This document shows, piece after piece, positions 3,001-6,000 of a DNA stretch of 64,000 nt. Origin of the DNA: Escherichia coli O127:H6 str. E2348/69 (GTDB lineage: Bacteria > Pseudomonadota > Gammaproteobacteria > Enterobacterales > Enterobacteriaceae). Location of the stretch: NCBI RefSeq assembly GCF_000026545.1, contig NC_011601.1; one strand, written 5' to 3'. Each line of letters opens with the position of its first letter. Position 1 is the first letter of the stretch. Made by a program: the position numbers.

Positions 3001-6000
3001 GCCTTTTTTTTAAATGTCTCACAATTCAGACGGTTGACAGTTGTCTGTTTTGCGGGGAGTTTGTTAAAAGAAACTGGCATGGTGAATCCCCCTGTGCGGC
3101 TGTCTCTTGATCAGATCTCCTGATCAAGAGACTTCATCACCAGGTAACCCTCAACCATATCCTGAAGTCTGAACCAGCCATCCCACATGACTACCCAACC
3201 GGGGCGACCGGTGCGTTTGCTGTCATGCCATCGCCCCAGTTTCGCCAGTTTCAGACAGGCCCATTTCAGTGTCGGCATCTGTGACGGAAGCGGTTTTCCT
3301 TCCAGCTTAACCCACAGCAGTTTCCACTCTGTCGGCGTCAGTATTTTCTCACAGCTGTCATTTTGTGTTTCTTCACTGATACCGCCCTGCCGCAGGCCCA
3401 GCACCCGCACCGCGATAAACGCCTTGATAACCACCATGCGCTCGAGGTTATCCCGGGTCTGCATTCGCAGCGATTCCACACATGTACCACCACTTTTCCA
3501 CGCCTTGTGGTATTCCTCTATCAGCCAGCGTCGCTCGTAATGGCTGACGATACGTCGCGCATCGGCGGCACTCGCCACTTTTTCTGACGTCAGCAGATGC
3601 CAGCAGGCGCCGTCCTCTGCCTGCTCCCGGCAACAGACATACGTGAGCGGGAGCGCCTGGCCGCTGTTGTCGGGATTTTTTATGCTGACTTCGCTGTAAC
3701 TGATGAACATCCGGGCCTGGCGGGCTGCCCGCCCGCCTTTTTGCATCACATTCAGCGTGTGGCTTCCCGCGGTTGCCAGGACTTCCGGCAGTTCGAAGAG
3801 CTTGCCGGGTGCTTCTTCCAGCCGGCGATTCTGTGCTGCACGCACCACGAAGCGCTGCCCGTGGCTGACTTTATAATGCAGGTAATGCCAGATATCCGCT
3901 TCCCGGTCACAGACAGTGATTACCCGTTTCTGTATCTCCCCCAGCCATTCGGCCATGCGCTCCGAAGCCTGCTGCCAGCGGTAACTTTCTTTTTCTTCAT
4001 AGGGACGTTCTTTTCGCTGGTGCTTAACACCGTAGGTGTCCGTGGCACGACTCCAGCGCTGCTGTTCGATAAGACCGACTGGCAGGGCGCTGTCGGGGGC
4101 GTACATCAGGACAGAGTGAGCCAGCAGCCCGCGCGTCTTCGGGTTAGTGGTGGTATTCCCCAGGTCATCAGATGCCGTACTGTGACTGAAGTTAATGGTG
4201 GTGGTGTCTTCCAGCGCGAGGAGCAGCGGATGAGCCTCACATGCCCTTACAGTGGCGGTAAATCCGGCTTCGGCAATGGCTTGCGGGGACACAGACGGGT
4301 TACGTATCAGGCGGTACGCACCTTCAACCTGAGCAGTGGACTGGGATGATTTCACAATAGAAAGACCTGCATGCTGAGCGAGAGAAGAGGCCAGTGACAC
4401 AAGGCGTCGTGTACGACGCGGATCACCGAGACGGGCATGTCCAAACTGCTCGTTAGCCCATGAATAACAATCAGAAAGTACCATAACAGACCCGAAGAAA
4501 ATGAAATATAAGAGAAGATCAACAGGTGAGGAAAAAGTTCAAAAAATCGCTGCCGGGGAGGAAGGAAACTACCGGATGGAAAGAGTCCCCCTAAAGCAGA
4601 CTGACAGACATCACAAATCCCCGGGTGGGGATTTGTGTATAAGAGACAGCTGTGCGGAGGGGCAATCAGCGAGTAGGTATATGGGATAATCGCGGATTCA
4701 GGTGCTGGTACTGAATTCACCGGGAGGCACCCGGCACCATGCAATGGCACATAGCGCCACTCTCCAGCCCCTCTCCGGAGGGGCTTTCTTATGGACAAAA
4801 AAAGCCCGCGCAGGGAGACGCGGGCGGCAAGGAATAAACAACAAAACGTGAAGTAATATTTCAGCTGGCGAATAATATCCGACAGTAATCACTCTGCGCA
4901 ATAGCGCGGCCTTTTTCGTATTGCGGACTGTTGTCTCTCTTCTGCCATTGTCCTGTAACTTCCGGACTTCAGCCCGCTCCTCATTTTACTCACAATATTA
5001 TCCCGGCCGGGAGGATTCATGGCATTTAAATACTATGATGTTGTCAGGGCGGCGTCGCCGTCAGACCTTGCGGAAAAGCTGACACATAAACTGAAAGAGG
5101 GCTGGCAGCCGTTTGGTAGTCCGGTGGCCATAACCCCTTATACCCTGATGCAGGCGATTGCAGCAGAAGGTGATGTGGTCGTCAGTGGTGCAACTGAGCC
5201 GGACTGGTTCTACGTGGTTGTGCTTGCCGGACAGTCCAACGGCATGGCCTACGGTGAAGGGCTTCCGTTACCGGATTCTTACGATGCTCCGGATCCGCGC
5301 ATTAAACAGCTGGCGCGCCGCAGCACGGTAACTCCGGGTGGAGAGAGTTGTACGTATAACGACATCATCCCGGCTGACCACTGTCTGCATGATGTGCAGG
5401 ATATGAGTACGCTGAATCATCCGAAGGCAGACCTGAGCAAAGGGCAGTACGGCTGTGTCGGCCAGGGCTTACATATTGCCAAAAAACTGCTCCCGTATAT
5501 CCCGAATAACGCGGGGATCCTGCTGGTACCATGCTGTCGTGGTGGTTCGGCATTCACCCAGGGCGCGGAGGGGACATTCAGTGCGGACGCGGGGGCCAGC
5601 CAGGATTCGGCGCGCTGGGGGGTGGGTAAACCGTTATATCAGGACCTGATTGCGCGCACTAAAGCTGCATTACAGAAGAACCCGAAAAATGTGTTGCTGG
5701 CGGTGTGCTGGATGCAGGGAGAGTTTGACATGAGCGCCGCCACCTACGCACAGCAACCTGCGCTGTTTACAGCCATGCTGAAGCAGTTTCGTGCTGACCT
5801 CACTGTGTTTAACGCGCAGTGTCATGGTGGCAGTGCTGTAAATGTGCCGTGGATTTGTGGTGACACGACGTATTACTGGAAAAATACATACGCTACCCAG
5901 TACGACACCGTGTACGGCGGGTATAAAAACAGGGAGAGTGAGGGCGTTTATTTTGTGCCCTTCATGACAGACGGTAACGGCGTCAATACCGCCACTAACG

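Follow-up and report, generated by a model that had tools for sequence, protein, structure and literature searches.

The IS50 inside end at this locus and the element that carries it

The question raised by this locus is what kind of insertion sequence ends with the inside end (IE) of IS50 and encodes a transposase that had been judged only distantly related to that of Tn5. The window analyzed here is a stretch of 64,000 nucleotides of Escherichia coli O127:H6 str. E2348/69 (contig NC_011601.1). We consider it very probable that the repeat is the IE terminus of an intact and already named element, ISEc13 (IS4 family, IS50 subgroup), located in a lambdoid prophage, which would move by an IS50-like cut-and-paste route under Dam restraint and whose IE would be kept by purifying selection. 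The parts of the element are as follows.

3100..4649, minus strand: ISEc13 copy 1, whole element of 1550 bp, with both 19-bp ends found
3100..3118, plus strand: IE-type 19-bp terminal repeat CTGTCTCTTGATCAGATCT, read inward, 19/19 to the IS50 IE
4631..4649, minus strand: outside end (OE)-type 19-bp terminal repeat CTGTCTCTTATACACAAAT, with 17/19 bases shared with the IS50 OE and as many with the mosaic end
4634-4642, minus strand: TTATACACA, the DnaA-box sequence of the Tn5 OE, within the ISEc13 OE, from the sequence
3111..4484, minus strand: transposase gene, 457 amino acids, WP_000244363.1, from the open reading frame and the RefSeq CDS
3109-3112, 3114-3117 and 3122-3125, no strand: three GATC (Dam) sites, read from the sequence

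As the IS50 reference we used the complete element from pMAK2 (1601-3134 of the fetched record), the CDS of which is annotated as "IS4-like element IS50R family transposase." Against this reference, the identity of the two IEs expected by the original prediction held at all 19 bases and ended at base 19, the next bases being different. The sequence CTGTCTCTTGATCAGATCT recurs in a second copy of the element (42923-42941, minus strand), and shuffled sequence yielded 0.00 matches to it, also when up to 3 mismatches were permitted. The GATC sites that had been noticed at this end proved to be three; together they make up three of the five GATCs of ISEc13 and fall within its last 26 bp, and IS50 likewise has three in its last 24 bp. 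The TGA stop codon of the transposase (complement of 3111-3113) occupies IE positions 12 to 14, and IS50 is arranged alike, as had been stated from the sequence. The OE, which recurs in the second copy at 41392-41410 (plus strand), resembles the Tn5 outside and mosaic ends as predicted and shares TTATACACA with IS50; a DnaA site is described in the Tn5 OE and mosaic end (PMC3347997). At position 4 the ISEc13 OE has T, as in the mosaic end and unlike IS50.

The window is 100% identical to the chromosome of E2348/69 (enteropathogenic E. coli [EPEC]), and RefSeq names two coding sequences in it (3111-4484 and 41557-42930) "IS4-like element ISEc13 family transposase." Over 1550 bp, copy 1 and elements with a RefSeq-annotated ISEc13 CDS are 99.9% identical, and some 30 places on the E2348/69 chromosome match the full 1550/1550 bp at 99.9%, as does the E2348/69 plasmid. 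Compared with ISEc13 as annotated in this strain and in many other Enterobacteriaceae (99.9 to 100% identity over 1550 bp), it is the same element with no difference of substance, one substitution (R180W) setting it apart from copy 2. Near-full copies, defined as those with at least 80% of the element covered, occur in 873 of 5,426 complete E. coli genomes, and 1138 plasmid records match ISEc13. The name, which is in use in published papers, rests on the NCBI annotation rule, on near-identity of sequence to annotated copies, and on those papers; the text and supplements of the IS4-family review (PMC2266710) do not mention ISEc13 by name, and a literature search on the insertion sequences of E2348/69 gave no relevant paper. 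The element is already known, as a named, widespread, and routinely annotated insertion sequence. Table 1 of the same review gives for the IS50 subgroup the end pattern CW------Y---CA-A--W-, a size of 1350 to 1550 bp, and direct repeats of 8 to 9 bp; both 19-mers of ISEc13 fit this pattern, its 1550 bp lie in the range, and its duplications are of 8 bp and 9 bp.

A transposase of Tn5 type

The claim that the transposase is only remotely Tn5-like turned out to be overstated. Pairwise alignment with the Tn5 transposase gave a moderate 42% identity over 441 aligned residues, and a phmmer search against Tn5 transposase structures gave an E value of 7e-83 over residues 6 to 453. The hallmark of the IS4 family is a DDE triad with a Y-(2)-R-(3)-E-(6)-K (YREK) signature (PMC2266710). 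In ISEc13 both are intact, D93/D193/E323 aligning with Tn5 D97/D188/E326 and Y316/R319/K330 with Tn5 Y319/R322/K333, and W298 is also conserved. Profile matches exceeded the cut-offs for PF01609 (32.1 bits, cut-off of 23), PF14706 (70.1 bits), and NF033590 (511.6 bits, cut-off of 160). The C-terminal Tn5-type dimerization domain PF02281 scored 24.1 bits, below its cut-off of 26.7, and the same region is covered by the phmmer and pairwise Tn5 alignments. By the phmmer, PF14706, and NF033590 matches, homology to the Tn5 transposase extends along the whole protein and takes in the N-terminal DNA-binding domain.

IS50 also makes Inh, an N-terminally truncated inhibitor translated from an in-frame internal start at Met56. 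An inhibitor of this type was rejected for ISEc13, which has Gln52 in the Met56 column and, as the next residue, Val53 encoded by GTT, so that there is no start codon at the aligned position. None of the 10 relatives that we compared has Met in this column, and 6 of the 10 have Met one residue past it (among them two Vibrio elements and those of Flocculibacter, Shewanella, and Xenorhabdus).

Conservation of the ends across the IS50 subgroup

The comparison set consisted of 12 elements: ISEc13, 10 relatives with transposases 50 to 77% identical, and IS50. The first 14 bases of the IE are identical in all 12, a stop codon lies inside the IE in 11, and the full IS50 IE 19-mer is present in 6. Besides ISEc13 and IS50, the 19-mer is carried by relatives in Salmonella, in Serratia, in one more member of the Enterobacterales, and in Photorhabdus (ISPlu9), the transposases of which are 57 to 77% identical to that of ISEc13 and 42 to 46% identical to that of Tn5. 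The more distant elements of Vibrio, Photobacterium, Flocculibacter, Shewanella, and Xenorhabdus match it at 16/19 positions, with the first 14 unchanged. Sharing of the 19-mer is thus graded with relatedness, which fits purifying selection. The ISEc13 OE is the commonest natural form (7/12 elements, being identical in 6 of the 10 relatives) and stands equally near to the IS50 OE and to the engineered mosaic end.

ISEc13 and IS50 have 42% protein and 53% DNA identity. They have in common the IE 19-mer, an OE alike at 17 of 19 positions, the stop codon within the IE, three GATCs at the IE tip, a GATC overlapping the −10 region at 36 to 40 nt from the ATG, a DDE/YREK transposase with the same domain order, and duplications of 8 to 9 bp. 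They differ in the Met56/Inh start, present in IS50 and lacking in ISEc13, in transposase length (457 amino acids in ISEc13 versus 476 in IS50), in the number of promoter GATCs (one versus two), in the leader, which is ca. 72 nt longer in ISEc13 and has two hairpins, and in a 13-bp terminal hairpin at the IE, which IS50 does not have. The same two-type ends and the same geometry of TTGAAC, 16 nt, and GATC as in ISEc13 characterize ISPlu9 (Photorhabdus), ISPpr3 (Photobacterium), and the unnamed relatives from Salmonella, Serratia, Vibrio, Shewanella, Xenorhabdus, and Flocculibacter. These relatives are 1485 to 1505 bp long and lack a leader insert of ca. 62 bp found in ISEc13, and the Vibrio/Shewanella type has an IE ending in CACAAGT, the 19 bp of which hold a single GATC and not two, and its promoter carries GATCNGATC.

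The contrast between a transposase at 42% identity and an IE at 19/19 could point to an undescribed IS50-group element that has unusually retained the IS50 inside end; we regard this as very improbable, given that a named insertion sequence with these exact ends is annotated at the locus and widespread, that its name appears in papers, and that the same 19-mer is present in five other subgroup elements. What was predicted, a distinct IS50-group element with a conserved end, stands insofar as the element is separate from IS50 and its GATCs are conserved; it is not new or unusual, and the identity of the IE is no peculiarity. Recent recombination or end exchange with IS50/Tn5, in place of long-term conservation, would also leave a perfect 19/19 match beside diverged sequence, and a short conversion tract is possible in principle. 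Yet the identity stops exactly at the functional 19 bp, with different adjacent bases, and the 19-mer is common to the enterobacterial and Photorhabdus relatives and reduced to 16/19 in the more distant ones. Such an exchange is highly improbable, and we reject it on the graded occurrence of the 19-mer across relatives. The exact match of the ISEc13 IE is real but an ordinary trait of the IS50 subgroup, and, in a named element with ends already on record, it carries little weight as a discovery.

Candidate promoter region, leader, and proposed Dam control

Upstream of the transposase gene, two further features were located.

4513..4542, minus strand: candidate transposase promoter, with TTGAAC (4537-4542), 16 nt, GATC (4517-4520), and a weak −10 candidate TCTTCT (4513-4518)
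4612..4637, minus strand: hairpin just inside the OE, CACAAATCCCC ACCC GGGGATTTGTG, from the fold

Since a simple sigma-70 consensus scan of ISEc13 called no promoter, the candidate derives from conserved geometry only: a TTGAAC-like hexamer, exactly 16 nt, GATC, and 32 to 40 nt to the ATG are kept in all 12 elements, including IS50. In ISEc13 this GATC overlaps the weak −10 candidate TCTTCT. The hairpin next to the OE is followed by the ISEc13-specific stretch of ca. 62 bp, with a second hairpin and a T run; a GC hairpin with a T run occupies the OE-side position in 9 of the 10 relatives, with different stem sequences.

A GATC is also found at IE positions 10 to 13 in 12/12 elements, while the total number of GATCs per relative is 3 to 6 (about 5.5 expected) and that of ISEc13 is 5 (5.9 expected). 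Because GATC is fixed both in the IE and in the promoter region of all 12 elements, Dam control of ISEc13 is plausible and a reasonable deduction from sequence. According to PMC3347997, which cites Yin et al. 1988, Dam is inhibitory in such transposons to the expression of transposase as well as to the binding of the ends. In the searchable literature we found genome surveys only and no experiments on ISEc13 transposition or its Dam dependence.

The division into an OE type with a DnaA box and an IE type with Dam sites and a stop codon, together with a Dam site at the promoter, is known from IS50. Our comparison indicates that these are not peculiarities of Tn5, as they are conserved across gammaproteobacterial elements that belong to the IS50 subgroup and have transposases 41 to 46% identical to that of Tn5. 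This conservation supports the coupling of Dam to replication as an old, selected trait of the subgroup.

By homology with IS50/Tn5, ISEc13 would move by cut-and-paste. Two transposase molecules would bind both ends and then pair them, each end would be cut through a DNA hairpin intermediate, and insertion would take place with a 9-bp stagger. Fully methylated GATCs in the IE may hinder transposase binding, and a methylated GATC over the −10 region of the weak promoter may lower transposase synthesis; given this restraint at both IE and promoter, activity of the element would peak just after replication. That the IE equals that of IS50 at 19/19 positions probably reflects strong purifying selection on a sequence with several simultaneous roles, as the site bound by transposase, as a target of Dam, and as the place where the coding sequence ends.

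Two independent insertions in the window

Copy 1 sits in a lambdoid prophage of O127:H6 E2348/69, and copy 2 adjoins the trp operon. The features that bear on their history are the following.

41392..42941, plus strand: ISEc13 copy 2, 1550 bp, CDS 41557-42930, WP_000244358.1, OE 41392-41410, IE 42923-42941
3092..3099, no strand: target-site duplication CTGTGCGG, left copy, 8 bp, with the empty site in strain E28
4650..4657, no strand: target-site duplication CTGTGCGG, right copy, with the empty site in strain E28
3947, minus strand: sole difference between copies 1 and 2, Trp180 versus Arg180, from pairwise comparison

The empty site of copy 1, in a related prophage of strain E28, reads CCCCCTGTGCGGAGGGG, and the duplication is only 8 bp. 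Copy 2 is flanked by a 9-bp duplication, AGCCTAGCT (41383-41391 and 42942-42950). As each copy has its own duplication and the empty site of copy 1 exists elsewhere, the two were inserted independently, and for annotation they mark independent insertions, in the prophage and beside the trp operon of E2348/69.

The arrangement of the pair could suggest otherwise: two nearly identical inverted copies, with their IE ends outward, bracket a segment with which they might form a 39.8-kb composite transposon that brought in the prophage late region and the effector genes nleA, nleH1-2, and nleF, and for Salmonella, composite transposons have often been predicted from pairs of ISEc13 (PMC7729385). This is almost certainly not the case here, where the flanks outside the pair differ from each other and the bracketed DNA is contiguous prophage and chromosome; the separate target duplications and the empty site reject it. 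A different matter is whether copy 1 is an inactive relic, no longer able to move on its own. Copy 2, all 10 relatives, and IS50 have Arg in the column of residue 180, and the change to Trp at this otherwise invariant position means that the transposase of copy 1 itself may be impaired; its duplication, moreover, is of 8 bp instead of 9. On the other hand, copy 1 has a full-length open reading frame, perfect 19-bp ends, and a single base different from copy 2, other ISEc13 copies in the cell could supply transposase to it, and an 8-bp duplication falls inside the range of the IS50 subgroup (PMC2266710, Table 1). We therefore see a relic as possible, if rather unlikely, and treat copy 1 as an intact ISEc13.

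A terminal hairpin and a solo palindrome

About the last 35 bp of ISEc13 form a strong hairpin.

3102..3132, no strand: terminal hairpin, arms 3102-3114 and 3120-3132, 13 bp perfect, 5-nt loop

One arm, the 3' one, is the IE tip itself, and the inner arm is formed by the last transposase codons; the codons TCT-CTT-GA in the inner arm are preserved in most relatives. Folding, computed on the identical sequence of copy 2, gave a dG of −21.6 kcal/mol (z −3.9). Of the 12 elements, 9 have a comparable terminal hairpin; IS50 and ISPlu9 lack one. The inner inverted copy of the end might be functional, as a second transposase-binding site or as a 3' mRNA structure tuning transposase expression or end choice, although we find this doubtful. 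If it were so, the transposase could occasionally process the 35-bp unit alone.

In many chromosomes of E. coli, the interval from trmL to lldD holds a solo, perfect 35-bp palindrome that consists of just both arms, and we found no earlier description of it or of the terminal hairpin of the ISEc13 clade. A simple insertion with target duplication was rejected as its origin, since alignment of the alleles shows ca. 79 bp of a repeat element replaced with no clean duplication; for the same reason, the solo palindrome looks like a scar.

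Ends and identity of the element

The element bounded by the two ends is 1,550 bp long (3100-4649, copy 1) and is found a second time at 41392-42941 (copy 2), in the opposite orientation and with one base different. The features of both copies are as follows.

3100-3118 (+), copy 1, and 42923-42941 (-), copy 2: inside end (IE)-type 19-mer, CTGTCTCTTGATCAGATCT (motif search)
4631-4649 (-), copy 1, and 41392-41410 (+), copy 2: outside end (OE)-type 19-mer, CTGTCTCTTATACACAAAT (motif search)
3111-4484 (-): transposase (Tnp) ORF, 457 aa (ORF call)

We took the reference ends of IS50, the insertion sequence of Tn5, from public plasmids, in more than 200 of which the IE- and OE-proximal IS50 sequences were present at 100%. 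The complete IS50 used was that of pMAK2 (L004, 1601-3134; CDS annotated as "IS50R family transposase"). By direct comparison, the copy 1 end at 3100 matched the IS50 IE at 19/19 positions, with identity lost from base 20 onward, while the OE-type end matched the IS50 OE and the mosaic end at 17/19 each. As a chance control, the 19-mer ends were searched in shuffled sequence, with essentially zero matches at up to 3 mismatches. GATC sites start at 3109, 3114, and 3122, and the Tnp stop codon TGA (complement of 3111-3113) occupies IE positions 12 to 14, exactly as in IS50. The original prediction of an IE identical to that of IS50 and carrying GATC sites, a stop codon inside the terminal repeat, and a far end like the Tn5 outside/mosaic end was therefore confirmed in all its details.

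Its interpretation was only partly supported. The element is the already known ISEc13: RefSeq annotates both transposase genes of the window as "IS4-like element ISEc13 family transposase," and since a well-known named IS has these ends, the reading of a new element fails. The name rests on NCBI annotation and is in use in several papers. Window bases 1 to 3099 match E. coli O127:H6 strain E2348/69 at 100%, and the 1,550-bp element has 99.9% matches at about 30 chromosomal places in this strain and at two on its plasmid. Among 5,426 complete E. coli genomes, 873 had a copy covering at least 80% of it and 2,991 had fragments; plasmid matches amounted to 1,138 records (Escherichia, Shigella, Salmonella, and others). 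Those 2,991 genomes, O157:H7 strains included, contain ISEc13-like copies that are degenerate or truncated (ca. 90 to 97% identity) and often split into an "IS4/Tn5 family transposase DNA-binding protein" and an "IS4 family transposase." Three assemblies of E2348/69 had 30 (NZ_CP059840.2), 29 (NZ_LT827011.1), and 27 (NZ_LT903847.1) ISEc13 places, which could reflect recent movement or loss in laboratory passage, or an assembly difference.

Transposase

ISEc13 Tnp matched Tn5 transposase structures over residues 6 to 453 (E value, 7e-83), with a global identity to Tn5 Tnp of 42% (187/441 aligned residues). The alignment shows conservation of the catalytic DDE triad, the YREK signature, and W298. 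Thus, the relationship to Tn5 Tnp proposed originally holds, but calling it remote overstates the distance. Pfam Tnp_DNA_bind and DDE_Tnp_1 exceeded their cutoffs, the Tn5 dimerization domain scored slightly under its own, and NCBIfam NF033590 ("IS4 family transposase") gave 511.6 bits. No counterpart of Met56, the start of the IS50 inhibitor, was found in ISEc13, where Gln52 aligns with it and GTT is the following codon. The sole difference between the two copies (3947 versus 42094) changes Arg180 to Trp in copy 1. Given that this column is Arg in copy 2, in all ten relatives described below, and in IS50, the transposase of copy 1 itself may be weakened.

Conservation of ends and Dam sites

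We compared 12 elements, namely, IS50, ISEc13, and ten relatives whose Tnp was 50 to 77% identical to that of ISEc13 and 41 to 46% identical to that of Tn5. The relatives, whose ends were located through the CTGNCTNTN motif, came from a member of the Enterobacterales, Salmonella, Serratia, Photorhabdus (ISPlu9), Photobacterium (ISPpr3), two Vibrio species, Flocculibacter, Shewanella, and Xenorhabdus. IE bases 1 to 14 (CTGTCTCTTGATCA) were unchanged in 12/12, and the TGA stop fell within the IE in 11. The full IS50 IE 19-mer occurred in IS50, ISEc13, three enterobacterial relatives, and ISPlu9, and the marine-type elements had IEs ending in CACAAGT or CATAAGT (16/19). An IE identity peculiar to ISEc13 is ruled out by the same 19-mer in the enterobacterial relatives and ISPlu9, as is a recent exchange of ends with IS50, since IE conservation follows relatedness over the 12 elements. 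Judged from these sequences, the exact IE match is a conserved group trait that tracks relatedness. At the other end, the ISEc13 OE-type 19-mer was the commonest form (identical in 6/10 relatives), from which the IS50 OE departs at two positions; the ISEc13 OE keeps the DnaA-box sequence known from the Tn5 OE, TTATACACA.

Of the five GATC sites in ISEc13 (5.9 expected by composition), three fall in the terminal 26 bp on the IE side, and another is located 36 nt ahead of the ATG; each of the ten relatives has only 3 to 6 in total. In all 12 elements, the first GATC found upstream of the transposase gene is 32 to 40 nt before the ATG, and a spacer of exactly 16 nt separates it from a preceding TTGAAC-like hexamer (CGGAAC in IS50). 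This GATC overlaps a weak −10 candidate, mostly TCTGAT or TCAGAT and TCTTCT in ISEc13, and the spacers around it vary among the 12 elements. A simple promoter scan of ISEc13 called no promoter. In Tn5/IS50 and similar elements, transposase expression drops when promoter GATCs are Dam methylated, and methylated GATCs at the ends inhibit binding of the transposase (PMC3347997, citing Yin, Krebs and Reznikoff 1988). Together with these effects, the conserved GATC positions give good support to the view that Dam-sensitive control is probably conserved in ISEc13.

The ends, catalytic residues, duplications, and multiple copies of ISEc13 are all directly observed. By homology to Tn5, it would transpose by cut-and-paste: end-bound transposase would pair the ends, a hairpin intermediate would form on the transposon end, and insertion would occur with a 9-bp stagger, with Dam control presumably exerted at two points (promoter and IE).

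Insertion history and surroundings

Target duplications border both copies: 9 bp, perfect, at copy 2 (AGCCTAGCT) and 8 bp at copy 1 (CTGTGCGG; 3092-3099 and 4650-4657). The empty site CCCCCTGTGCGGAGGGG in a related prophage of strain E28 (L002, 5609-5625) indicates that merely 8 bp were duplicated at copy 1; direct repeats in the IS50 subgroup are 8 to 9 bp (PMC2266710, Table 1, IS4-family review). A composite transposon formed by the two inverted copies is ruled out because each has its own duplication, which makes them independent insertions.

RefSeq annotation places copy 2 between IS200C and trpA, adjoining the latter. Its target, CCCCCAGC-CTA-GCTGGGGG with TTTTC after it, resembles a terminator hairpin interrupted by the insertion. 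The copy 1 target is likewise near-palindromic, with GC-rich flanks (CCCCC...GGGG). According to RefSeq, copy 1 lies in a lambdoid prophage, downstream of the gene for antiterminator Q and of a tRNA cluster; within 1-9600, a DUF6645 gene and lysis genes follow downstream. In Stx phages, this slot is occupied by the Shiga toxin genes, and copy 1 may be polar on late transcription of the prophage. In the tRNA cluster just upstream (2730-2970), ARAGORN gave three genes (anticodons CAT, TTT, and TCT); RefSeq has tRNA-Ile and tRNA-Arg only, leaving the middle gene without annotation, and the related prophage has Ile, Arg, and Arg at this position. Between the IS copies and past the tail genes, 33581-41265 holds the type III effector genes nleA, nleH1-2, and nleF, an espO remnant, a broken integrase, IS256 and IS3 fragments, and one IS200C.

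Hairpins

The last ca. 35 bp at the IE form a terminal hairpin (3102-3132 in copy 1, 42909-42939 in copy 2; 13 bp perfect; dG, −21.6 kcal/mol; z, −3.9), whose arms are the IE tip and, on the inner side, the last transposase codons. Fold comparison found similar hairpins in 9/12 elements and none in IS50 or ISPlu9. A solo perfect 35-bp palindrome, CTGTCTCTTGATCAG-GAGAT-CTGATCAAGAGACAG, equivalent to two back-to-back IE tips without an attached IS, lies between trmL and lldD in E. coli WP5-W18-ESBL-11 (L015, 1499-1533) and likewise in many E. coli strains. It stands in for ca. 79 bp of a repeat element present in other strains, and alignment with their alleles revealed no clean target duplication.

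Directly inside the OE, 9/10 relatives have an inward-facing GC-rich hairpin followed by a T run, with differing stem sequences, which looks like a terminator that would block read-in transcription. In ISEc13 (4541-4637 in copy 1, 41404-41500 in copy 2), an insert of ca. 62 bp separates the hairpin from the T run; it holds a second hairpin and, compared with the ten relatives, is found in ISEc13 only.
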